A stretch of 64,000 bases of DNA, taken from the IMG/VR virus record IMGVR_UViG_3300011577_000001; one strand, given 5' to 3'. Source of the stretch: a virus. Its lineage: Duplodnaviria; Caudoviricetes. Position 1 is the stretch's first letter. Each line of letters starts with the position of its first letter. The notes beneath the pieces are model-generated. The model had not been told where the DNA came from. It saw only the letters and a program-made list of their open reading frames with translations, and did not search any database. The position numbers and the translations under genes were made by a program. Shown here piece by piece: positions 2,615 to 16,804 of the stretch.

Positions 2615-2658
2615 GAAACGGGGAAGCCGCAAGGCCTCCCCGTTTCCCTTTATGCCGC
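2615..2658. terminator. Hairpin terminator between convergent genes
   Basis: GAAACGGGGA-AGCC-GCAA-GGCC-TCCCCGTTTC followed by CCTTTATGCCG. Confidence 0.7.
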
Positions 2659-4878
2659 GGTAGACGCTGGAACAAAGTCCGAAACCAACTTGGTATTATT
2701 GTCGTTAGACAAGAACACGCCGAGCGATTCCAAGATCAGATAGAACGGTCGGACTGTAGAGTATACCAGTTTGCGAATGTTCATTGCTGACAGCACTTCT
2801 TTTGGTAGACCTGTCAACTCCACTACGTCCTTAGGCAGCAGCAACGTGGTAGCGTTGGTTTTGCCAGCGTAAGTCGCAGTAAGGGTTTCTTTGATCTGCG
2901 GATCTTCGATACCATCCAACCAGAGTTGCAGTGCCGTTTTGTTCGGCAGGTCGAGGGATACCTTGATCGCTTGGTACGGCGGCTTTGGAGCCTCGCCGTA
3001 TTTTGGACGGAACACTCGCTCCCACAGGAGGTAGTGTTGGTATGGTGACTGGCCTGGGTTTGCATAAGCAGCCGGGTCTTTCACCGAAGTCCGTGCCAGG
3101 TAAGTCGATTCAGCACGCATCACAGAACCGATAATGCCGTGTTCGATATCTGCCACACGTTGCATGATCTCGGTGATGCTGATCTTCTTACCGTCGATTA
3201 CAGTATCCATGATCTCGCACATGGTGGCCGTAACCTGTTTCATGATTGCTGGAGGACAGTTCGAGTCTTTGAGGTAAACCCCTTTGATCTCTTCTTCCAA
3301 CTCAGCAAACACGTTCCCTTCTTTGGCTGCCTTGTAGGCGTAGTAATGCTTAGCCATCGAAGTCAGCGAGAACACCGAGAAAGCAAACTCGTTCTTCATC
3401 GCCAGTACGTTCAGCTTGTCTGGTACCACACCGAGTGTAGTCGACAGCATAGCCAACACGTGGATGATCGACTGCGTAGCCAGGTAAACCATGGTGTAGT
3501 CCACGGCAAAAGCGGTTTCGCTAAAGTCAATCTTACCGGTGTACCACTCAACCCAGTTCTGCACGGTGAAGATCGTGGAGTCTGTGTCGGAGGTGATCGC
3601 AACGTGACGGACAGAATCTCGAATCCATGCAACCGAAGCAGGCATGTTGTCGGATACCCAAAACGCTTTGATCAGGTACTGGTAGTCGTTCAGTACAGCG
3701 TGGATGTTCTTGATGGTCGCACCGATCAAGCAGTAGTTCGCAGGATTGACTTCCAACAAACGACCCAGACCCAAGCCTTGTAGCTCCTTAGCGCACAGGA
3801 GGCTCACAAACGCTTTTAAGTCTGCATCCATACCCTTGACATAGACTTTCGCTTCTTCAAGCTCCAGCGGCACCTCAGCCTTCATAGAGAGGCGTGCCAT
3901 GAACACCCGCATTGGTCCGTCGTTGTACTTCGCTAGATGCCAGCAATCGCCGACATACGCAAAGGCCGAACGTTGCAGATCGTTCATCCCTTCAACCAGC
4001 TTACGGATTTCCGCAATCTGACTTTTGTTGTTCCAGTAGTGGTGGGTGGAGTACAGGATCAGCTCCATGACTTCATCCACGGTCGGAGCACGGAAACCGT
4101 ACAGCGACATGGCTTTCTCGATCAACTCATAGTCAACATGACCAATGATGCTGACGATGTTAGCCTTCACTACATCAGGACACCAGTAGTGACGGTTACC
4201 GGCCAAGAACTTCTCGTTGTTGGCGTTCCCCAAACTGGTAGCCACTCGACAGGTCGAAGTCAGGCTCGAGTGAGCAGACTTGTTGTGCAGAATGGTGGAG
4301 GTCGACGCCTGTGCCCCGGACAGACTGTTGTTGGCAATCTTGTACGTAGTCTGTTCGTTCTCCTTGAGTTCCGCCAGTTCTTCCATCTGAGTGGCGTGTC
4401 TGCGAAACTTTGCCGCGGCAACGGTATCGCCTGATTTCTCAGCCTCGGCTGCTTTCAGGTTCGATTCTTGTTGCTCCATCTGTGCATTGTGACCTTCCTT
4501 CTTCACAGCACCCCGGCCGACGATGTTACCGGTGATGTATTCCGACAACAGGGACGGAATAACGTCTGGGTGTTCGTACACAGTCATGGACGGTGCAAAC
4601 AACCAGTTGTTGTCCTTGATGTCCTTGAGGTAAGTTGAGTAGGTCATCTCCGTACGCTCACGGTCACCGACTTTGTTGCGGTGCAGGCAGTACAGAGCTG
4701 GGTCTTTGATCTCGAATTTACCACCAGGACCTGTCACGCGATGAATGTAAGCCTGACAGTCTTCCAACGGCTTCCCCGTACGGACATGCAAGAATATCGC
4801 CATGTCTCGACGGTAGTTAGCCAGAATATCGAGGTCTCGCTTATAAGCGGACGCTGGCTTGATGAAATGGTTTTCCAT
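2650..4878 (-). CDS. Family-B DNA polymerase, polymerase subunit (phiKZ gp50-like)
   Basis: Motif B-like KIANNSLSG, motif C TSDTDSTIF, AKHYY; no exonuclease domain recognised, consistent with the split polymerase of phiKZ-like phages. Start placed at MENHF after RBS GGGAG. Confidence 0.88.
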   Translation of the reverse strand: MENHFIKPASAYKRDLDILANYRRDMAIFLHVRTGKPLEDCQAYIHRVTGPGGKFEIKDPALYCLHRNKVGDRERTEMTYSTYLKDIKDNNWLFAPSMTVYEHPDVIPSLLSEYITGNIVGRGAVKKEGHNAQMEQQESNLKAAEAEKSGDTVAAAKFRRHATQMEELAELKENEQTTYKIANNSLSGAQASTSTILHNKSAHSSLTSTCRVATSLGNANNEKFLAGNRHYWCPDVVKANIVSIIGHVDYELIEKAMSLYGFRAPTVDEVMELILYSTHHYWNNKSQIAEIRKLVEGMNDLQRSAFAYVGDCWHLAKYNDGPMRVFMARLSMKAEVPLELEEAKVYVKGMDADLKAFVSLLCAKELQGLGLGRLLEVNPANYCLIGATIKNIHAVLNDYQYLIKAFWVSDNMPASVAWIRDSVRHVAITSDTDSTIFTVQNWVEWYTGKIDFSETAFAVDYTMVYLATQSIIHVLAMLSTTLGVVPDKLNVLAMKNEFAFSVFSLTSMAKHYYAYKAAKEGNVFAELEEEIKGVYLKDSNCPPAIMKQVTATMCEIMDTVIDGKKISITEIMQRVADIEHGIIGSVMRAESTYLARTSVKDPAAYANPGQSPYQHYLLWERVFRPKYGEAPKPPYQAIKVSLDLPNKTALQLWLDGIEDPQIKETLTATYAGKTNATTLLLPKDVVELTGLPKEVLSAMNIRKLVYSTVRPFYLILESLGVFLSNDNNTKLVSDFVPASTAA

Positions 4879-4970
4879 TAGTGCTCCCGAAAGCGGTAGT
4901 CCCACATTCTATTACCCACGGACAGATTTAAATACAGACGTCATAAAAGGAGGCCGAAGCCTCCCTCTAT

Positions 4971-6797: not shown

Positions 6798-7214
6798 TCA
6801 TCGAAATGGTTCAATCAAGATGTTGTTTCCGATCCATCTGCGGATCTCGTGATAACCATAGTTGGGTAGTGGGGTATAGCAGTTAACCATACTTACTACG
6901 CGGTCATGAATTTCACTGGCCAGTGCGGTAAGCTGGTGTATCTCGATAGCCTCACTGTCCGTAAGCTCGGTTTGAGCATTAGGACGGTGTGCTATAAAGT
7001 AGTCGGACATGACAGCCAACGTCGACCACATGGTGGGTCGTTTATCAAACGATTGGTTGAGGTCCGACAGGGAGAACGATAACTCGACTAAGCCCTTCAC
7101 GCTGAGCTGGTGCTCAGCGAGATAGCTTTCGAGGTGATCGTACTCTTTGACAATTCGTTCGACGGGAACGAGGATATGTTCATTTTGCACGATAACCAAT
7201 CCTTCCATATCCAC
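6798..7214 (-). CDS. Hypothetical protein
   Basis: RBS GAGGAG; operon packing. Confidence 0.65.
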   Translation of the reverse strand: MDMEGLVIVQNEHILVPVERIVKEYDHLESYLAEHQLSVKGLVELSFSLSDLNQSFDKRPTMWSTLAVMSDYFIAHRPNAQTELTDSEAIEIHQLTALASEIHDRVVSMVNCYTPLPNYGYHEIRRWIGNNILIEPFR

Positions 7215-7234
7215 TCTCCTCAGAGTGTGTCAGG

Positions 7235-7666
7235 TTAGTAGATGTCTATTAAGTACCCGCGATCAGTGTGCTTGAGGTCAAACGACCAATCACGGTTCCG
7301 CATCAACTTGCCAACGTACTGTCTGGCAATGCGACGAGTTAGCCCATACACGTACTCGTAATGCCGAAGCATCCGGTGATCATTGTGAAAGGCATAATAC
7401 TCGTCGTTGCACATGTTGTCGACCAACACCTCATCCATCGCCATGACCAGACTTTCGTCGTACGCCATTGGATCGTGGGTCAACTCACCATGTAGCACAT
7501 TCAGAATGAAATCTGCCCGACCCATGCCGAGCATGTTCAGAATGCGCTGCTCCATCACTGGAAAATGCGAATCGGGGATATAGATGTACACGATATCTTT
7601 CTCAGATGTCGGTGAGGTATCCAGTAATCCCAAGCTGTCGACGAAGTTCCTCAGGATACCAGTCAC
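7235..7666 (-). CDS. Hypothetical protein (start uncertain)
   Basis: ORF overlapping the upstream gene; RBS AAGGAG near the GTG. Confidence 0.55.
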   Translation of the reverse strand: MTGILRNFVDSLGLLDTSPTSEKDIVYIYIPDSHFPVMEQRILNMLGMGRADFILNVLHGELTHDPMAYDESLVMAMDEVLVDNMCNDEYYAFHNDHRMLRHYEYVYGLTRRIARQYVGKLMRNRDWSFDLKHTDRGYLIDIY

Positions 7667-8914: not shown

Positions 8915-9064
8915 AGTTTCTTACCTTTCTGAAGGTTAGTCACTTGGATAATATAGGTCTAAAACTTATTGGGATGGCGTCTATGACGCTTTCTCTATAG
9001 GATCAGGGGTATGTGTCAATTTAAACAGTCTGTTGCTTAAAACGCAAAATAGACGGCATAAAAG

Positions 9065-9710
9065 GTAAATCCCCACAACGCACCCCGCGGACACGAGGAG
9101 CGCCGTGGGGCGCCTCACCAACAACACAAGGTCCGCTTAGGAGGACGGACATGAAGCGACACCCGGATCGCTTCCCTAAACACACTCAGTCAAGGTCGGC
9201 CGCCAGAGAACCGAGAGTGTTTAAGGCTGCGGTCAAGACGCTAAATCCCGTCGATGGTTAACGGGAGGGTCTACAACAACAACTTGTGGGATTCGCCGTC
9301 CCACCAGACCTTTTCAGTTACTTAGCACTTGCGAGGCGCTAAGTACTTCCTTACTGCCCCTGTGATGGAAGGTCTAGGTACACAGGAGTCCTACCCTAAC
9401 ACGGGTTGGATTACACGCACAAGGCGACAAGCCGCGCTCGCAGCGGCCGCCGTGCAGGTGTCAAGCAGCTTTCGCCCTTTGGGCTGTCTACACTTACAGG
9501 ATGACTCGGTTCTTAGCCAAGGTCCTGATTTGGGGTTCTGTCCTGAAAGTAGTAACAGTTCCTACGACACTGGGGTTTAATCCAGGAAAGCTCAACTCAA
9601 GAGTGAGTGGGGAAGCCGAAACCTCCCAGACAGTTAATGGCCCGACGGGGTGGGGTCCTGTCCAAGGTTAGGGTAGATTAGCTCCTAACCAAGACTTTCG
9701 ATACACTCAC
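9065..9710 (-). ncRNA. Candidate large structured RNA(s) downstream of tRNA-Leu
   Basis: About 650 nt with no credible ORF; many hairpins; GNRA/UUCG loops read on the minus strand; ends at a hairpin followed by TTTTATGCCG. Confidence 0.5.
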
Positions 9711-9713
9711 GTT

Positions 9714-9800
9714 TGGTACCCGAAGTCGGACTCGAACCGACATGGCTCAAGGCCGTCGCATTTTAAGTGCGGTGCGTCTCACCAATTTCACCATTCGGGC
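9714..9800 (-). tRNA. tRNA-Leu(TAA)
   Basis: Acceptor GCCCGAA/TTCGGGT, loop CT-TAA-AA, long variable arm, TTCGAGT, encoded CCA. Confidence 0.9.
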
Positions 9801-9885
9801 AAATGGGTGCCTTCTCTACTTTGCCAGGTAAGGGTTCTTTGTTTCCACGCGCAGATCCACTCATTGACGAGAGAAGACATTGAAA

Positions 9886-9984
9886 GGGGTCCCCTGATGG
9901 ATTCGAACCACCGACCGTCGCATCCATTCTGTCCCAGGTTTGGACCAAGATGCACAACTCTAACCGACTGAGTTTAAGGAGACC
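9886..9984 (-). ncRNA. tRNA-like RNA with a 24-nt hairpin-containing insert in place of the anticodon loop
   Basis: Acceptor GGTCTCCT/AGGGGACC; D arm AACTC-AGTCGGTTA-GAGTT; stem GCATC/GATGC; T arm GGTGG-TTCGAAT-CCATC; no encoded CCA. Confidence 0.65.
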
Positions 9985-10061
9985 ATCAACTGAATTCCCT
10001 GGGGAACCTTAATCGACTTGGAAGCCATTCAAAGTTTGATGGGAGACTCCCCAAGGGAAAG

Positions 10062-10149
10062 TGGCGGAAGGACAGGGACTCGAACCCTGGGACCTGTTAC
10101 AGTCGGCGGTTTTCAAGACCGCTGCAATACGCCGCTATGCGACCCTTCC
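10062..10149 (-). tRNA. tRNA-Ser(TGA)
   Basis: GCGGT-CT-TGA-AA-ACCGC, long variable arm, G73-CCA. Confidence 0.92.
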
Positions 10150-10174
10150 GAAAATCAAGCCAGGGCTATTCCCT

Positions 10175-10461
10175 GGAGTCACTCCCATGGCTAGGCACCA
10201 TGACCGATTAGAGCGAGGTCCTAAGCGAAACCGATCGGCACGGTTACTCGCTTACTCTTTCGAGTACGGATGTCTAGGCGTCTCGTTGTGTGAGCAACGA
10301 TCCACTCGCCCGCAGGACAGGGCCACCAGCAGGGCAGGCGCTTGGTGTTCCTTGGTCAGGCTTTCGCCCGAGACAGCAGTTTCAGCATTCCTTTCGGGAT
10401 ATGCTTAGTCTTCGCTTTACGACGAGGACTGTAGAACGGAAAACCAGGCATGGCTCTCTCC
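10175..10461 (-). ncRNA. Candidate ~290-nt multi-helix RNA between two tRNA-Ser genes
   Basis: Ends pair (GGAG/CTCC and CCATG-C-CTGG/CTAG-C-CATGG); three GAAA-capped hairpins on the minus strand. Confidence 0.55.
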
Positions 10462-10472
10462 TTCTTAGAAAG

Positions 10473-10560
10473 TGGCAGTAGGTGAGAGATTCGAACTCTC
10501 GTGGCTGTTACACCAACACGCTTTCCAGGCGTGCCTTTTCGACCGCTCAAGCAACCTACT
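10473..10560 (-). tRNA. tRNA-Ser(GGA)
   Basis: CACGC-CT-GGA-AA-GCGTG, long variable arm, G73-CCA. Confidence 0.9.
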
Positions 10561-10621
10561 GTGAAAGGTAAAGCAAAGTTCAATCAATACCCGGTGTGTG
10601 GTATCTTTTCGTTTACAGATC

Positions 10622-10709
10622 TGGTGGCCCAGCCAGGATTTCGGGTTGTACCTGGAATGCTACCTTGGAGGGTAGAGTTATACCTTTCGGCGTTTTTAAC
10701 TATTGGGCC
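10622..10709 (-). ncRNA. Non-canonical tRNA-like RNA (6-nt anticodon loop, enlarged D and T loops, CCA end)
   Basis: GGCCCAA/CTGGGCC-A-CCA; D stem GTTA/TAAC; CTACC-CTCCAA-GGTAG; CCAGG-(13 nt)-CCTGG. Confidence 0.6.
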
Positions 10710-10809
10710 TTTCTTACCACACCACTGATTGAATCCCGCGAGGGAACTTCCAAACAGATAGACAAGATTCCTTTGTAACGCGTATTGTATTCGCTCTCTT
10801 TCAAACGAG

Positions 10810-10889
10810 TGGCCAGGGGAGCCTTCGGACCCTACTCCCACGTGGAACCCCGGTTGGTGGGGCTGCTTTAGAGCTTTTAGCGACTGGCC
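10810..10889 (-). ncRNA. Divergent cloverleaf-like RNA candidate
   Basis: GGCCAG/CTGGCC-A; GCT/AGC arm; AGCCCC-ACCAACC-GGGGTT; GGGAGT/GCTCCC; canonical D- and T-loop residues absent. Confidence 0.35.
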
Positions 10890-11071
10890 TTTCTACGTTA
10901 CCGCTGTCTATCAAAATCACAAGCAGTAGATTTCACCGTACCGTCGGCTGTGATGTTACTTTCTACTTGCCTAGGCTTTCGCCTTGATTCCCTGCATCCA
11001 GACTCGCGTTACTGGATACTGCTTGTGATCTTTGTCAACCATCTTGTCGAGGACGACAACACAGTCGAACA

Positions 11072-11147
11072 TGGCACGCACCCAGGGAGTCGAACCCCGA
11101 ACCTACGGATTTGGAATCCGTTGCTCTGCCAATTGAGCTAGGCACGT
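11072..11147 (-). tRNA. tRNA-Trp(CCA)
   Basis: ACGGA-TT-CCA-AA-TCCGT, A1-U72, G73-CCA. Confidence 0.92.
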
Positions 11148-11154
11148 GTAAAAC

Positions 11155-11230
11155 TGGTAGCACCAAGTGGGCTCGAACCACCGACCTCACCCTTATCAGG
11201 GGTGCGCTCTACCAACTGAGCTATAGCGCT
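11155..11230 (-). tRNA. tRNA-Ile(GAT)
   Basis: CACCC-CT-GAT-AA-GGGTG, canonical cloverleaf, CCA. Confidence 0.95.
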
Positions 11231-11237
11231 ATGAAAC

Positions 11238-11609
11238 TTAACCGCGACGGTTATAGTTGACGCGCTGGACTTCCAGCTCGACATACAATTCCATCGGGTA
11301 TTGAGAAGGCAGTTCTACCGAGACACGCGCGATGGCAGTCTCAGGGTTGACGAATACCGCAAACGGAGCATTGGCGAAGGAGCCCAACACGCCTTGCATC
11401 TGGACACCACGCTCGGTTTCGCTCTTGATCGGGCTGGTGATGTTGCAGGCAATGTCCACACCGTCAACGGTGGTGACACGCACTGCTTTCACCGACTCGA
11501 TGGAGTCAGTACTGTCGAACTCTTCGGTCTGTGTAGCAATCAGACCAAACAGGTTGACTTGGCTAACCTTGAGCGGCAAACGAACGTGGTCAACAGGATA
11601 CTTGTACAT
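11238..11609 (-). CDS. Hypothetical protein; stand-alone paralog of the C-terminal domain of the upstream Tad2 fusion
   Basis: Shares VRxPL-x4-5-NLFxL...DxIxSVxxVxxxTxDG...N and EL(F/Y)xxLx(I/V)...NRR with the C-terminal half of 11619-12254. Confidence 0.75.
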   Translation of the reverse strand: MYKYPVDHVRLPLKVSQVNLFGLIATQTEEFDSTDSIESVKAVRVTTVDGVDIACNITSPIKSETERGVQMQGVLGSFANAPFAVFVNPETAIARVSVELPSQYPMELYVELEVQRVNYNRRG

Positions 11610-11618
11610 GACAGCCCC

Positions 11619-12254
11619 TTATTCAGAACGACGGTTGCGTTGGCCGTACTCGATGCGAAGAACCGCGAACAGCTCAACCGAATTCTCGGCAGCAGATGAA
11701 CGCGTTGGCATGCAACCCCATTTCTGGGTGTCAACTTGGATGTTGACGTGTTGCTTACCGTTGAGGCGATCCGCAAAGGTCTTCAAGCGAGTCTCAGTAC
11801 GGTGTCCCGGTACTTCGACGACGTTGCTCTTGACGACCAACCCATCAGCAGTCTCCAGGTGAACGACTTCCACCGAGAAGATAGCATCAGGACCCTCCAA
11901 CACGGCGCCGGTTTCACCAGCCAACGTGAAGAGGTTTTGTTCAACGCCGTTCAAAGGAACGCGCACGTCAACCTTGGCAACGTAATCCTCAGCATCAAGG
12001 ACTACCCAGTCGTCGGCAAGGATGTCGGACTGAGAAGCAACCCACGGGACAAAATCACCGTTGTGCGCTTTCAGACCCAGCCAAGGTCGCAGAGTCGGTG
12101 CAGGGTCCTTACGAACGTTGAGACCAACGGTGCGAGCACCCACGTCATAATGGCCAGAGCCAACCATGACGACCCACATGCCTTTACCGTTCCAGCCTTC
12201 GCGTGTGGCGCGAGAGCCATGCTTCAAAGCCGTAAGGGCTTGACCGAACTCCAT
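11619..12254 (-). CDS. tad2: DUF2829/Tad2-family anti-defence sponge domain fused to an unknown C-terminal domain
   Basis: MEFGQALTALKHGSRATREGWNGKGMW...WVASQSDILADDW is the DUF2829/Tad2 signature. Start at 12254 (RBS CAGGAG); the longer ORF call runs into tRNA-Ser. Confidence 0.8.
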   Translation of the reverse strand: MEFGQALTALKHGSRATREGWNGKGMWVVMVGSGHYDVGARTVGLNVRKDPAPTLRPWLGLKAHNGDFVPWVASQSDILADDWVVLDAEDYVAKVDVRVPLNGVEQNLFTLAGETGAVLEGPDAIFSVEVVHLETADGLVVKSNVVEVPGHRTETRLKTFADRLNGKQHVNIQVDTQKWGCMPTRSSAAENSVELFAVLRIEYGQRNRRSE

Positions 12255-12275
12255 GTGAAGCTCCTGTTGTGAATG

Positions 12276-12361
12276 TGGCGGTGGGCGAAGGATTCGAACC
12301 TTCGGGGCCGCAACCCTCTCCCTTAGCAAGGGAGTGCGATAGACCGCTCTGCCAGCCCACC
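12276..12361 (-). tRNA. tRNA-Ser(GCT)
   Basis: CTCCC-TT-GCT-AA-GGGAG, variable arm, G73-CCA. Confidence 0.92.
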
Positions 12362-12384
12362 CATTTGAAAAGATGAAACGAAAT

Positions 12385-12461
12385 TGGCTGGGATAGTTGG
12401 GCTCGAACCAACGACCTGGTGATTAACAGTCACCCGCTACTACCAACTGAGCTATATCCCA
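12385..12461 (-). tRNA. tRNA-Asn(GTT)
   Basis: GGTGA-CT-GTT-AA-TCACC, U1-A72, G73-CCA. Confidence 0.93.
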
Positions 12462-12964
12462 TTATAACGAATACCAAGAGCTACCCGACGAACCGTGTCT
12501 TTACCGATTTCAAACTCCCGAGCAATTGCTCGATAGCTCATGGTACCGACCAGTTCAAGGATAGCCTTGACTGACTCTTCATCAAGCGCAGCATGTGGGC
12601 TGTCAAACCCTTTCTTGCCTTCATACAAACCTAAGGCTTGCGCATGATCAATATTACCTTGATGCGTTACCCACTCCAAGTTATCCCACCGGTTATTTGT
12701 CTTATCCGTGTCCTTATGGTTCACGAAGGGAAGATTCAACGGGTTAGGGACAAAAGCCTTGGCCACTTGTACATGAGCCCTTAAACAGAACGACTTACCT
12801 TTCCTTCCTCCTATCTTGGAGGCGTGAGTAAGATAGCCATTATGGTTGGGCGTCAGTGCCAAATCTTGGAACGTGCGAATGCTAAACAGTGTCCCGAAAT
12901 TGCCGATCATGAAGAGATCAGGGTAGTCAGGACATTCCGTGAAGACTTCAAATTCATACGACAT
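12452..12964 (-). CDS. Free-standing HNH homing endonuclease with C-terminal HTH
   Basis: H...VAKAFVPNP...VNHKDTDKTNNRWDNLEWVTHQGNIDHA; HTH-like SYRAIAREFEIGKDTVRR; early promoter at ~12990-13012. Confidence 0.9.
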   Translation of the reverse strand: MSYEFEVFTECPDYPDLFMIGNFGTLFSIRTFQDLALTPNHNGYLTHASKIGGRKGKSFCLRAHVQVAKAFVPNPLNLPFVNHKDTDKTNNRWDNLEWVTHQGNIDHAQALGLYEGKKGFDSPHAALDEESVKAILELVGTMSYRAIAREFEIGKDTVRRVALGIRYNGI

Positions 12965-13036
12965 GTACTACTCCAGTAAGTGTTACTTCCTGTAAGTAAT
13001 ATACATCTGAACTATTTTAGTCTCCTAGGAAGGAGA

Positions 13037-13113
13037 TGGCGCCTCCGAGGGAACTTGAACCGTCGACCCCCGGCGTGACAGGCCGGTGCTCTAACCAACT
13101 GAGCTACGGAAGC
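13037..13113 (-). tRNA. tRNA-Asp(GTC), poorly paired T stem
   Basis: CCGGC-CT-GTC-AC-GCCGG, G73-CCA; T stem GACGG/TCCCT has mismatches. Confidence 0.8.
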
Positions 13114-13307
13114 GAAAACGTCCTGAGGAAAATGGACTCTGCAATCACCCAGACTGTGCCTGTAGGTGCATCGCGTGTAGGCTCAAGGTTCATGTAGACA
13201 ACCATGGGCCAAGAACAATCCTGAGCGTGTCGACCGACGTGTAGCACTCGGAAGCGCAACCCGCTAGGAGAGAGGTACTCTCGATCCTTCTCGACAAACT
13301 CTAACAT
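13104..13307 (-). CDS. DUF1653-like small protein
   Basis: Y...G..FRV...GRH....MVVY..L......VWV....F..TF pattern; RBS GAGGA. Confidence 0.65.
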   Translation of the reverse strand: MLEFVEKDREYLSPSGLRFRVLHVGRHAQDCSWPMVVYMNLEPTRDAPTGTVWVIAESIFLRTFSLP

Positions 13308-13328
13308 TGTTCATTCCTCTAATTCGGC

Positions 13329-13558
13329 TCCGGCTTGCTTCCCACCGCTTCGGTGGTTCACTGTACAACTCACCTGTAAACCAGACGACCCGCCGGAGAG
13401 GTCTTTAACTAACTACGTCAGCACACCTAAGGTTCCGAAGAAGGTAGGTACTTGATGTAGATCCACTGGAGTACTAGCTCTCGTCGACGTTGGCACTAAC
13501 GAGATTGGGTGATCCTCCCGGCGGGGACATCCGCCGAGTTAATGCACAGTGAGCCGGA
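13329..13558 (-). ncRNA. Candidate ~230-nt rod-like structured RNA
   Basis: Nested helices TCCGGCT/AGCCGGA, TCACTGTGC/GTACAGTGA, AACTC/GAGTT and CCCGCCGG(G)AGG/CCT(CT)CCGGCGGG, with two apical hairpins (one UUCG); strand inferred from context. Confidence 0.6.
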
Positions 13559-13869
13559 TTTTCGTAACGCACAAAGGCAAACGACACGGCATGGCAAAGG
13601 ATCGTAAGGGTGGTCTCCCCGTAGTTCTCCCACGAGGTTAAGGGACCGCTGCGGCGCTATGCTAGATGCTTTTGTCCGCTGCGACAATCCAAGACCGTTG
13701 TTTGACACGCCTCGCCTCATTGGGTTGGAATTCCCGAGACTTATTTTCCCTGACTGATGACGCTCTCAGCATCGACCGAGCGGGTTACTCCTTTCCAAGG
13801 GAGCACCTATCTAAGTCTTACAAGGTAAAACCACCGTATCGCCAGCAAGGGTCGTCGCGGTGTTAAAAG

Positions 13870-13956
13870 TGGTGGTCGAAGGATGGAATTGAACCTCTAG
13901 CACAAGGCGGCGCGTTTACAGCGCGCTGACAGTAGCCATCTGTCTCTACAACGACC
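13870..13956 (-). tRNA. tRNA-Tyr(GTA), atypical or degenerate
   Basis: GCGCG-CT-GTA-AA-CGCGC, A73-CCA; two U-U mismatches in the acceptor; irregular D and T arms. Confidence 0.65.
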
Positions 13957-13963
13957 GTGAAAC

Positions 13964-14094
13964 TGGTGCCCCGTTACTCTATTACGAGTGTCTGTTAGAC
14001 TGACCCCGTGAGAGGGGAGTTTGGGTTTGACCGGCTCTACATTCCCACCCCGAAGGGTTCACAATGCGATCTCCGATGACCTCAGACCAGGACA
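13964..14094 (-). ncRNA. CCA-ended RNA with acceptor-like stem, T-like hairpin and enclosed structured domain
   Basis: TGTCCTG/CGGGGCA-CCA; GTCTG/CAGAC; ACTC-GTAATA-GAGT; internal ACCC-TTCG-GGGT. Confidence 0.5.
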
Positions 14095-14107
14095 TGAAAC
14101 TAGAAGA

Positions 14108-14240
14108 TGGCCCCGCTACGTGGACTCGAACCACGGACCTCCCGCTGGCACGCGCATTCAAACGTCATCACTGCCGGAAGGGCTGCTAGCGACGTAACCG
14201 CATGTCTAACGAGTGCTCTAACCAACTGAGCTATAGCCGG
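14108..14240 (-). ncRNA. tRNA-like RNA with a 73-nt extended anticodon arm
   Basis: Canonical D arm TAGCTCAGTTGGTTAGAGC; AGGTC variable loop; T arm CGTGG-TTCGAGT-CCACG; G73-CCA; anticodon arm replaced by a long interrupted hairpin. Confidence 0.75.
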
Positions 14241-14558
14241 GATGTGAGAGAAGGCCGCTACCCCGATCTACGGGCCGTGATACTCTCGGGGACTCAGGCG
14301 AAAGGGAACCAAAAGCCTAAGAACTGCGGTATGCAAGCGCAGTCGTCTATTACCCCAGAGTCGGGTCGCAATATCATTCGATGGTGTGTGGGGTCCGTCA
14401 AGTCTCCACGTTCCCTCTCGGTGGCGAAACCAAGAGCGTGCTGGAACTTACCATTCAAACAAATCACGTCATTCTCTCATGATATCATTGAGCTATGTAT
14501 TTTTTTACTGCATTTGTAGGGACAAAAAAAAGAGGGCCCCGAAGAGCCCCGACTTTTA

Positions 14559-15709: not shown

Positions 15710-15979
15710 CTTTCCGACCTCACTTCGGTGGGGTCGGTTTATGACGGCATAAAAGCTAGGCTCGAGGTTCCCTTAGGTCTGGCGCTACCAGATCCTGAAG
15801 AGTCCCTGCGGCTTCGCTTTTATGTTTCTTACTTTCAGATAACGACGTAAGTTCGACGAGTCTGGATTCAAGTCCGCATTGGTAGCAAGCCCAACGTCAG
15901 TCGACTAACCCAAATCTGCCTCCCCGTATCGCCCCGGTATCACACAGACACCAATTCCTGAAACGGCTTTATTTGCTCG

Positions 15980-16225
15980 TCACTTCCAGCCCCACGATAG
16001 TTTAATAGACCAGAAGCGCCCACCGGTACCGACAACCGGCGCTACTCCCATGTCTACATGCCTTCGCAGTAGAAAGCGCAAGGGTCCTGATTGTTGTTTG
16101 CCGGAACTCCCCTCTGTACCCGGCCACAAACTGATGACGAGCTGTCGCATCAGTCCATGAAGTACGAATACTCGTACCAGGCTAAGAATCCCCAACCAGA
16201 ACCACATCTTCAACACATTCGTCAC
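15980..16225 (-). CDS. Small putative membrane protein
   Basis: Hydrophobic N-terminal segment; weak start signals. Confidence 0.3.
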   Translation of the reverse strand: MTNVLKMWFWLGILSLVRVFVLHGLMRQLVISLWPGTEGSSGKQQSGPLRFLLRRHVDMGVAPVVGTGGRFWSIKLSWGWK

Positions 16226-16280
16226 GGTGTTGCGCGTTGACCGTCGGATTCCCGATTCATCTAATTAGACTTTTGGTCTC

Positions 16281-16610
16281 CTATACCAGACACGTACCTC
16301 GAACGTACGGTAGCGGCGACGCCGGTGCGAGACTCGGTCTCGCAGTCTTCTCATCGAACGCTGGCTCCCCCAAGAGCCAGAGCATCATGTCAACACGATC
16401 CCTCCAAAGATCACCAAGGGGAATCGTAGCCTCAGCAAACTGCCTTACTGTACCGCAAAACAGTCCAACTTGCTCGGCTGTGACATGATGCGGATTGTTG
16501 GAGCGCCAAAGTTGATCACCGTTTCCGATGAGCTGTACCTCGTGCCCCAACAACAACTGTCCAATCAACGAACCCAACCCGAGACAGCCCCCAACAATGA
16601 GAACTCTCAA
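16281..16610 (-). CDS. Hypothetical protein with a Rossmann-like or hydrophobic N-terminus
   Basis: TTG start after RBS AAGGA; MRVLIVGGCLGLGSLIGQLLLGHEV. Confidence 0.45.
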   Translation of the reverse strand: MRVLIVGGCLGLGSLIGQLLLGHEVQLIGNGDQLWRSNNPHHVTAEQVGLFCGTVRQFAEATIPLGDLWRDRVDMMLWLLGEPAFDEKTARPSLAPASPLPYVRGTCLV

Positions 16611-16624
16611 ATGGTCGTCCTTAC

Positions 16625-16804
16625 TCAGCCCAAACCAATCCCCGAAGGACGATTAGCTACCATGTGGCGGCTAGGGTCGTACTTCTCTTGAGGATACGGC
16701 TCGGTCCAAGGCTTTCCTTGACAACAAACGCAATGGAACGGCGATGCAGGTGGTGTTGGCAGCATCACGATGGTGTCACATTTATCGCAAGCGTATTCCT
16801 GCAT
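16625..16804 (-). CDS. 59-aa zinc-ribbon-like protein (absent from the ORF track)
   Basis: RBS AAGGAG directly after the phuZ stop; MQEYACDKCDTIV...FHCVCCQGKPW (CxxC...CxxC). Confidence 0.65.
   Translation of the reverse strand: MQEYACDKCDTIVMLPTPPASPFHCVCCQGKPWTEPYPQEKYDPSRHMVANRPSGIGLG

Follow-up and report, generated by a model that had tools for sequence, protein, structure and literature searches.

A tRNA operon of a phiKZ-like phage that probably doubles as an island of structured non-coding RNA genes

The window analysed here is a stretch of 64,000 nucleotides (nt) of viral DNA (Duplodnaviria; Caudoviricetes; IMG/VR record IMGVR_UViG_3300011577_000001), and its subject is an RNA island on the minus strand, from position 14,550 to 9,060. 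The locus was interpreted as a phiKZ-like transfer RNA (tRNA) operon that doubles as an island of non-coding RNA genes, with proposed processing and release of the RNAs. A probability of roughly 60% was assigned to this reading. The island holds eight canonical tRNAs, one non-canonical tRNA-Tyr, two tRNA-like units (T1 and T2) and at least eight other structured blocks, all on the same strand (Table 1). Three kinds of island RNA were distinguished: a large ornate RNA (G), scaffolds built on a tRNA body with a replaced anticodon arm, which makes them unable to decode (T1, T2), and compact modules of 100-265 nt (A, B, C1, D1-D3, E). Judged by sequence comparison, at least ten conserved structured RNAs of previously undescribed families stand beside the tRNAs. 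Non-tRNA stable RNAs in phage tRNA clusters are an already known kind; several of the RNA families are new.

Read along the strand, the island begins behind an upstream open reading frame (ORF) with a strong terminator and a conserved stretch, continues with alternating structured blocks, tRNAs and a few ORFs, and ends with G. Four protein genes (a Tad2-like gene, a paralogue of its C-terminal domain, an HNH gene and an ORF of 67 amino acids (aa)) and a conserved short ORF (sORF) for a basic 31-aa peptide lie among the RNAs. ORFs account for about 1.9 kb of the 5.4 kb, tRNAs for about 0.75 kb and other non-coding sequence for about 2.7 kb, so that the description "mostly non-coding", given in an earlier reading of the sequence alone (the original prediction), does not strictly apply.

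The phage was classified by its DNA polymerase. ORF 2650-4905 (minus strand) encodes a divergent family-B DNA polymerase of phiKZ-like phages (divDNApol PF20286, 812 bits), and the closest cultured polymerase, that of Xanthomonas phage Xoo-sp14, is only 44% identical. From the polymerase family and this best cultured match, the window was assigned to an uncultured phiKZ-like (nucleus-forming type) jumbo phage. Eight distinct relatives were available for comparison, namely two IMG/VR contigs and six metagenome lineages. The polymerase search yielded the two syntenic IMG/VR contigs: G001 (complete, 243.7 kb; loci L002/L015), with a polymerase 96% identical to that of the window, and G002 (loci L003/L016), with 81% identity. 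A 20-base word taken from the best-conserved section of G retrieved six further metagenome lineages and two chance matches; the metagenome loci are L020, L021/L027/L019, L022, L024/L026 and L028. Covariation was scored as the number of compensatory pairs observed in comparison to shifted controls, in which the pairing partners were slid by 1-3 columns.

The large RNA G was analysed in an alignment of eight distinct sequences, 68-91% identical to the window, over about 670 columns. RNAalifold predicted 160 pairs in 27 helices, and 98.1% of the cells were standard pairs. Compensatory pairs numbered 46 as compared to 2-8 in the shifted controls, and none of 500 shuffles reached the observed values. 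Many hairpins are capped by GNRA loops, and the core contains a near-invariant stretch of 43 nt with a single variable position. The loop of helix 18 (AGACCUU) pairs with a downstream AAGGUCU to form a pseudoknot, which persists through a change from G-C to U-A and through matching deletions of 1 nt. Hidden protein coding was ruled out by the absence of 3-nt periodicity (p=0.65; adjacent ORF 9e-27), by frame-breaking indels (of 113 gaps, 107 have lengths not divisible by three) and by the absence of a conserved ORF in the alignment. G is an RNA and not a protein gene.

A 6-nt palindrome in all seven rows covering it was found at only one place in the G alignment, the apical loop of helix 24. 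The loop sequence is CGGCCG in three rows and UGGCCA in the other four, its first and last bases having changed together. Because the double change preserved the self-complementarity of the loop, its constant palindromic character suggests self-association of G by a kissing-loop contact between identical molecules.

Known RNA families were searched for with Rfam at the gathering score, at E<=1 (island), at E<=0.1 (five relatives) and at E<=10 (isolated D and G segments), and only tRNAs and chance snoRNA or miRNA noise were obtained. ROOL, GOLLD, group I/II introns, RNase P, tmRNA, 6S, Y RNA, HEARO and known ribozymes were ruled out by these searches. The individual models for ROOL (RF03087) and GOLLD (RF01998) gave no match in the island at E<=1, in five relatives at E<=0.1 or in G alone at E<=10. 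No match to G or D1-D3 was found by blastn (word 11) among 50,697 phage genomes. Exact and degenerate core words were present in IMG/VR only in the two known relatives, and in none of 185,579 species genomes. A covariance model of the G core (R2) matched the controls G001 and G002; it found no match in the nearest cultured phiKZ-like phages (Xoo-sp14, LucasX, RTH11, FLC9 and Psa21) or in a complete IMG/VR relative with 39% polymerase identity. On present data, the island RNAs appear to be confined to one clade of phiKZ-like phages.

T1 consists of an 8-bp acceptor stem with one internal mismatch, a D arm, a T arm, a variable loop and an encoded GCCA. On the anticodon side, a 4-5-bp stem is followed by an arm of about 70-73 nt with three helices that replace the anticodon loop. 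The Rfam tRNA model (RF00005) aligned to positions 14240-14111 (130 nt including the insert, model positions 1-71), and scores in the relatives were 35.9-44.9 bits. Homologues were found in L015, L016, L024 and L027 (five distinct sequences, two sequence types), and 13 compensatory pairs were counted as compared to 1-3 in the shifted controls. Neither a 5-bp anticodon stem with a 7-nt loop (U33, anticodon) nor an excisable intron restoring a loop with U33 was found in T1, and the apical loops vary (UAAC, GCU, CUUCC). Because a multi-helix arm replaces the anticodon loop and no excision restores a U33 loop, T1 is unable to decode.

T2 of the window was detected neither by ARAGORN nor by Rfam at E<=1, and it lacks both a tRNA-model match and a qualifying anticodon loop. 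In the relatives, its slot is occupied by different tRNA-like elements, with the loops CUUAGUG or CUUAGGG on a type-I body (L027, L028, L024) or with a UUCG tetraloop replacing the anticodon loop (L016, L022). Three of these were scored with the Rfam tRNA model (L027, 27.9 bits; L024, 32.9 bits; L016, 49.7 bits). The relatives also carry an extra module of about 130 nt, closed by CACAUUAG...CUAAUGUG, between the tRNA-like element of this slot (slot F) and block F3 (approximate sites L016 3200-3320, L022 14090-14205, L027 6980-7090, L024 5150-5260); it is absent from the window. Another tRNA-like element has an anticodon stem with a 3-nt loop (AUU, AAU or UAA; L015 2560-2650, L020 670-760, L016 3105-3190) and was mislabelled by ARAGORN as tRNA-Ala or tRNA-Ile. 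Because its acceptor stem runs on into an outer helix (GAGAG...CUCUC), this element is regarded as a putative 'locked', non-decoding tRNA mimic.

Up to five aberrant tRNA-like units had been predicted; two of them, T1 and T2, were recovered, and the count of five was not. Modules D2 and D3 were considered as remodelled tRNAs, for which the cloverleaf-like four-way junction and the CUCCAAG loop of D3 were suggestive; the tRNA model gave nothing at E<=10, and the idea is kept as a lead. The base-paired blocks of the original prediction were substantiated for A, B, C1, D1, D3, E and G (100-650 nt) by conservation and covariation with 3-8 distinct relatives.

Among the compact modules (Table 1), D3 was found in every relative whose locus reaches its position, and its alignment of eight rows has 37 pairs, 98% paired, with 11 compensatory pairs as compared to 0-1. 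One of its hairpins is GAAA-capped; another has a 5-bp stem and a 7-nt CUCCAAG loop, which is UUCG in other variants. D2 gave a full-length (1-151/151), weak match to the covariance model of D3 (R1; 18.4 bits, rough E 0.02) and is a probable paralogue of D3. D1 is 99% identical to L015 (window 10921-11024, L015 3587-3690) and 95% identical to L027, amid flanks of about 80% identity, and the order of D1 and D2 is reversed in L015. Because of this identity amid less similar flanks and the changed order, a recent exchange of D1 as a single RNA cassette is suggested. Module E has GNRA-capped hairpins, the terminal one directly 5' of tRNA-Ser(tga). In F3, the closing stem is 98% paired with only one compensatory pair. 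The C2 region was represented by BLAST blocks at 13477-13036 (87%) and 13415-13036 (81%), homologues being too few for covariation.

The non-coding blocks are 84-99% identical to L015/L002 and the adjacent genes 79-81%; by this comparison, the non-tRNA blocks are conserved at least as well as the neighbouring genes. Relatives whose loci span the whole cluster have 9-13 tRNAs in differing sets. The combinations of tRNAs and modules vary between relatives, and the same non-tRNA blocks recur. Since module presence and order vary between close relatives, the blocks are independent, autonomous cassettes. The 5' half of the island is mosaic among close relatives. The 3' half looks more like a core function than a variable one, because D3, E, F3, G and three tRNAs were present wherever the loci of the relatives reach them.

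Under the proposed mechanism, the whole array would be transcribed from one phage promoter located after the terminator at 14550-14533, and transcription would end at the GC hairpin and U tract that close G and form the 3' end of the island. Host RNase P at tRNA 5' ends, and RNase E/Z plus exonucleases at 3' ends, would then cut at the tRNAs and tRNA-like bodies. These cuts would free the interspersed RNAs as stable species, in the way T4 makes RNAC and RNAD. Release by tRNA-processing enzymes is proposed because tRNA-processing biology is established and because of the T4 precedent. More tentatively, G may self-associate like ROOL and GOLLD, with the palindromic apical loop as the contact. 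Equally tentatively, the tRNA-like scaffolds may use the tRNA body for processing and stability and offer the non-anticodon arm to a protein or RNA partner. It is quite unlikely that the island acts as a coordinated RNA toolkit of nucleus-forming jumbo phages, in which G builds an RNA-only multimer via the palindromic kissing loop and the released T1, T2 and D2/D3 attach to host proteins that recognise tRNAs (defence nucleases, modification or translation factors), thereby protecting or reprogramming translation. If true, the phage would have a system for counter-defence or takeover that consists of RNA instead of protein.

Several points weigh against the interpretation as an operon with released RNA genes. 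The palindromic loop reflects one evolutionary event in two sequence groups, and is a lead and not a proof. G is unmatched by the ROOL and GOLLD models, and the analogy rests on size, ornateness and context. The promoter candidate is only a conserved stretch with neither a repeated motif nor a sigma-70 consensus. Protein genes and the sORF lie within the array, so that it is no pure RNA operon and internal promoters are conceivable. Finally, the relatives are mosaic and akin to each other, and the independent substitutions are therefore fewer than the cell counts suggest.

An RNA-based counter-defence function was considered, with tRNA-like RNAs and modules as decoys, sponges or inhibitors of tRNA-targeting defences (the anticodon nucleases PrrC, PARIS and retron-PtuAB) and the variant tRNA-Tyr replacing a cleaved host tRNA. 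It is unlikely, even though the island includes a Tad2-like anti-Thoeris gene, its 5' half varies as a mosaic among close relatives in the manner usual for anti-defence regions, T1, T2 and the slot-F elements keep a tRNA body with a lost or replaced anticodon loop, and the canonical tRNA-Tyr is swapped for a non-canonical element common to unrelated P. syringae phages. Tad2 and HNH may be mere cargo in a permissive region. Unlike arms-race cargo, G, D3, E and F3 are constant wherever covered and under purifying selection, and UUCG-capped anticodon-like stems would make weak decoys for nucleases recognising the anticodon loop. Alternatively, the blocks might be cis-acting leaders, trailers and spacers that only order or protect the processing of the polycistronic tRNA precursor, or control the ORFs lying in the array, before being degraded. 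The blocks do adjoin tRNA ends; E terminates in a hairpin right before a tRNA-Ser, C2 precedes the 67-aa ORF, and F3, which precedes tRNA-Leu, is a simple conserved stem. This explanation was judged improbable because a pseudoknotted RNA of 650 nt with many GNRA-capped helices and a near-invariant core far exceeds the needs of a spacer, the modules retain their structure at other positions or orders, and D1 is conserved to 99%. G follows the last tRNA and therefore is no inter-tRNA spacer.

Decaying pseudo-tRNAs with neutral spacer, or unrecognised protein genes, are hardly credible. Decay would agree with the two more stem mismatches of the window's non-canonical tRNA-Tyr relative to its L024 homologue, and with T2 falling below the tRNA threshold. 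Against it stand the massive compensatory covariation and non-coding blocks conserved no less than the flanking genes; unrecognised coding conflicts with the lack of codon periodicity and of a conserved ORF in G and with its frame-breaking indels. Covariation and periodicity refute this explanation for A, T1, B, D1, D3, E and G, and it could apply only to C2 and F1. The original prediction had regarded the blocks as something other than random spacer and had named a lack of structural conservation in relatives as refuting this; the blocks are conserved, covarying and modular. The observation behind it is confirmed, more strongly than a reading of the sequence alone could show. As a whole, its interpretation is partly supported: structure, modularity and a context of the GOLLD/ROOL type hold. 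The comparison with GOLLD and ROOL was apt as an analogy (a large RNA near phage tRNA genes), without extending to a covariance-model match.

ROOL and GOLLD are phage or prophage RNAs of unknown function; they often occur close to tRNA islands and assemble into RNA-only cages (bioRxiv 10.1101/2024.12.08.627333). G is of the same kind, being phage-encoded, several hundred nt long, elaborately structured with covariation and a pseudoknot, located at a tRNA island (next to tRNA-Leu), and with no known protein partner. Its candidate self-complementary loop would fit the RNA-only multimers of ROOL and GOLLD, a multimer of G being putative. G differs in matching neither covariance model and in its limitation to one phiKZ-like clade. 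In T4, RNAC and RNAD, whose role is unknown, derive from a tRNA region that also holds the homing endonuclease SegB (PMC3014915). The island likewise combines a tRNA operon with non-tRNA RNAs and a homing endonuclease. T4 has two small RNAs, whereas the island has at least ten modules of about 2.7 kb in total, including a 650-nt RNA; there is no sequence relation, and processing in the island is proposed by analogy.

The tRNA-like units were compared to three further systems. Bacterial Y RNAs (YrlA) are non-decoding and keep a tRNA architecture with D and T arms, and some phage Y-like RNAs lie near tRNAs. The tRNA-like units are likewise non-decoding with this architecture; T1 differs in having free acceptor ends with CCA and the extension on the anticodon side, not the reverse. 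No Rfam match to Y RNA/YrlA was found in the window or the relatives, and no credible Ro60 gene in the complete relative. A TROVE/Ro60 hit in G001 (C1:190175-190561, plus strand, corresponding to about 7000-7400 of the window) was rejected as spurious (25 bits, three stops, antisense to two conserved ORFs). In MALAT1-mascRNA, the MHV68 tRNA-miRNA units and engineered tRNA scaffolds, a tRNA body attracts RNase P/Z and keeps stable, or sets free, the non-tRNA RNA joined to it. T1 resembles a natural 'tRNA scaffold' with a 73-nt insert at the anticodon position. These systems are eukaryotic, herpesviral or synthetic, whereas cleavage of T1 is only predicted, and we know of no precedent for a tRNA-scaffold RNA in a bacterial phage. 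T5-type tRNA clusters replace cleaved host tRNAs by decoding phage tRNAs. The island shares with them a phage tRNA array, a variant tRNA-Tyr and an adjoining anti-defence gene; the T5 mechanism requires decoding tRNAs, whereas most of the unusual island RNAs are unable to decode.

Large ornate bacterial and phage RNAs are rare, and what ROOL, GOLLD and T4 RNAC/RNAD do is still unknown, for the T4 RNAs after decades. The locus adds a new RNA class of about 650 nt with a testable self-association element, a natural tRNA scaffold with a structured insert and several smaller new RNA families, all in one compact modular operon of a phiKZ-like phage. Since the modules are short, autonomous and supported by covariation, the old question of the function of non-tRNA RNAs in phage tRNA clusters becomes directly approachable.

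Table 1. Features of the RNA island in the order in which they are read on the minus strand. Compensatory pairs are given in comparison to shifted controls.
Feature	Position	Strand	Remarks
Intrinsic terminator of upstream gene (ORF 14957-14559)	14533-14550	-	7-bp GC stem and T8; conserved in relatives; 5' border of island
Conserved stretch after terminator, possible phage promoter	14470-14520	-	Conserved in window, L015 and L016
Module A, about 220 nt	14245-14465	-	5 distinct sequences; 60 predicted pairs, 90% paired; 23 compensatory vs 3-8
T1, tRNA scaffold with multi-helix arm instead of anticodon arm	14108-14240	-	Rfam tRNA 41.2 bits, long insert
Module B, about 140 nt	13970-14107	-	3 sequences; 33 pairs; 12 compensatory vs 0-3
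Non-canonical tRNA-Tyr(GUA), unusual D region	13871-13957	-	Missed by ARAGORN and Rfam
Module C1, about 265 nt	13600-13866	-	4 sequences; 60 pairs; 8 compensatory vs 0-3
C2, non-coding leader of 67-aa ORF	13308-13599	-	3' part of about 170 nt conserved in L015/L016
67-aa ORF	13104-13307	-	phrog_9138, E 1.8e-28; 3' end overlaps tRNA-Asp by 11 nt
tRNA-Asp(gtc)	13038-13114	-	ARAGORN, Rfam
HNH homing-type endonuclease, C-terminal HTH	12452-12964	-	PF13392, 35.9 bits vs 24.8; phrog_59, E 4.6e-38; 3' end overlaps tRNA-Asn by 10 nt
tRNA-Asn(gtt)	12385-12461	-	ARAGORN, Rfam
tRNA-Ser(gct)	12276-12361	-	ARAGORN, Rfam
Tad2-like protein: N-terminal Tad2 domain and C-terminal domain of about 120 aa	11619-12254	-	PF11195, 83.2 bits vs cut-off 25, residues 1-85
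123-aa ORF, stand-alone paralogue of C-terminal domain of Tad2-like protein	11238-11609	-	BLASTP 34% over 65 aa, E 6e-7
tRNA-Ile(gat)	11155-11230	-	ARAGORN, Rfam
tRNA-Trp(cca)	11072-11147	-	ARAGORN, Rfam
Module D1, about 100 nt	10916-11011	-	34 pairs; 5 compensatory vs 0, closing stem included
Module D2, about 155 nt	10758-10911	-	90% identical to L015
Module D3, about 155 nt	10579-10733	-	Outer helix enclosing four-way junction with three hairpins
tRNA-Ser(gga)	10473-10560	-	ARAGORN, Rfam
sORF, strongly basic 31-aa peptide (MPGFPFYSPRRKAKTKHIPKGMLKLLSRAKA)	10356-10451	-	GGAG ribosome-binding site; between tRNA-Ser(gga) and module E
Module E, about 205 nt	10150-10355	-	7 sequences; 56 pairs, 95% paired; 19 compensatory vs 1-4
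tRNA-Ser(tga)	10062-10149	-	ARAGORN, Rfam
F1, hairpin element of about 70 nt	9990-10061	-	Slot compared in 8 loci; relatives have a different hairpin there
T2, tRNA-like RNA	9886-9984	-	Acceptor, D and T arms; expanded anticodon arm of about 38 nt (17 nt normally); no encoded CCA
F3, about 85 nt	9801-9885	-	Directly 5' of tRNA-Leu(taa); conserved in 8/8 loci
tRNA-Leu(taa)	9714-9800	-	ARAGORN, Rfam
G, ornate RNA of about 650 nt	9060-9709	-	Starts 4-5 nt after CCA of tRNA-Leu; ends with GC hairpin and U tract

The canonical tRNAs were predicted with ARAGORN, which returned eight minus-strand genes between 13114 and 9714 (Leu-taa, Ser-tga, Ser-gga, Trp, Ile, Ser-gct, Asn and Asp), and the same eight were obtained with Rfam. 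The nine tRNAs of the original prediction are thus accounted for, the ninth being the non-canonical tRNA-Tyr(GUA) at 13957-13871. This element carries GUA in a 7-nt loop on a paired stem and an acceptor stem with an ACCA end, and is conserved across phages. It is 87-88% identical to elements in the tRNA clusters of the P. syringae phages KIL2 and phiPsa374; its homologue is annotated as tRNA-Tyr in ZY21 and unannotated in KIL2. In an alignment with KIL2, ZY21 and L024, covariation was found in the acceptor, D-like and anticodon stems. No canonical cloverleaf was recognised, as ARAGORN reported 0 genes in four homologues and Rfam gave no match. The element is a real, non-canonical tRNA-Tyr(GUA).

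In L015 and L016, a canonical tRNA-Tyr occupies the same slot, preceded by a conserved element of about 130 nt (L015 7090-7220, L016 5890-6020); in the window, the non-canonical tRNA-Tyr stands in place of both. The tRNA clusters of P. syringae phages of the KIL and phiPsa374 types contain an unannotated member of this tRNA-Tyr(GUA) family (L039 401-493, i.e. KIL2, KU130127.1 17608-17700), and ARAGORN skips it even where the ZY21 annotation says tRNA-Tyr. Annotation by tRNA finders thus overlooks a conserved non-canonical tRNA-Tyr family in Pseudomonas phages.

Protein genes were assigned by Pfam and PHROG. The Tad2 and HNH genes of the original prediction were confirmed by PF11195 (83 bits) and PF13392. 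The Tad2-like protein scores above the gathering score of PF11195 (Thoeris anti-defence 2-like), binding of a Thoeris signal being putative. The supposed Tad2 paralogue, the 123-aa ORF, is related to the C-terminal domain and not to the Tad2 domain, and had no Pfam or PHROG family match. The label "DUF1653-like" for the 67-aa ORF had to be dropped, since DUF1653 (PF07866) was sub-threshold (12.3 bits vs cut-off 23.5, E 0.22). L015/L016 lack the HNH gene at this site. The 67-aa ORF and HNH each run with their 3' end into the 5' end of a tRNA (tRNA-Asp, 13104-13114, and tRNA-Asn, 12452-12461, respectively), and tRNA excision would therefore truncate both mRNAs. The sORF is retained in six loci as 30, 31 or 32 aa with length changes in-frame only, and matched no Pfam family; its peptide may be a partner that binds the RNA of an adjacent module. 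The complete relative G001 was searched for partner enzymes, and neither RtcB nor a CCA-adding/PolyA polymerase nor an Rnl2-type RNA ligase was found.

Transcription signals were inspected at both borders. The motif of the conserved stretch behind the upstream terminator is not repeated elsewhere in the window and did not match the sigma-70 consensus, the sigma-70 scan being uninformative; the stretch is a possible island promoter. A strongly conserved promoter-like stretch at 8940-9010 on the minus strand (TTGACA..., then CCTATATTATCC) separates the end of G from the next gene (8914-8564) and appears to mark a separate transcription unit. A putative single precursor for the whole island would be consistent with the shared strand, with the signals at the two borders and with the structured blocks adjoining tRNA ends.

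About 1.2 kb upstream of the island, a conserved and ORF-poor region of about 950 nt was found at 15710-16664. In four sequences, it has 32 compensatory pairs on the plus strand or 40 on the minus strand as compared to 2-8 in shifted controls. Folding is more favourable for the minus strand (-174 vs -132 kcal/mol), and the region probably represents another large structured RNA.

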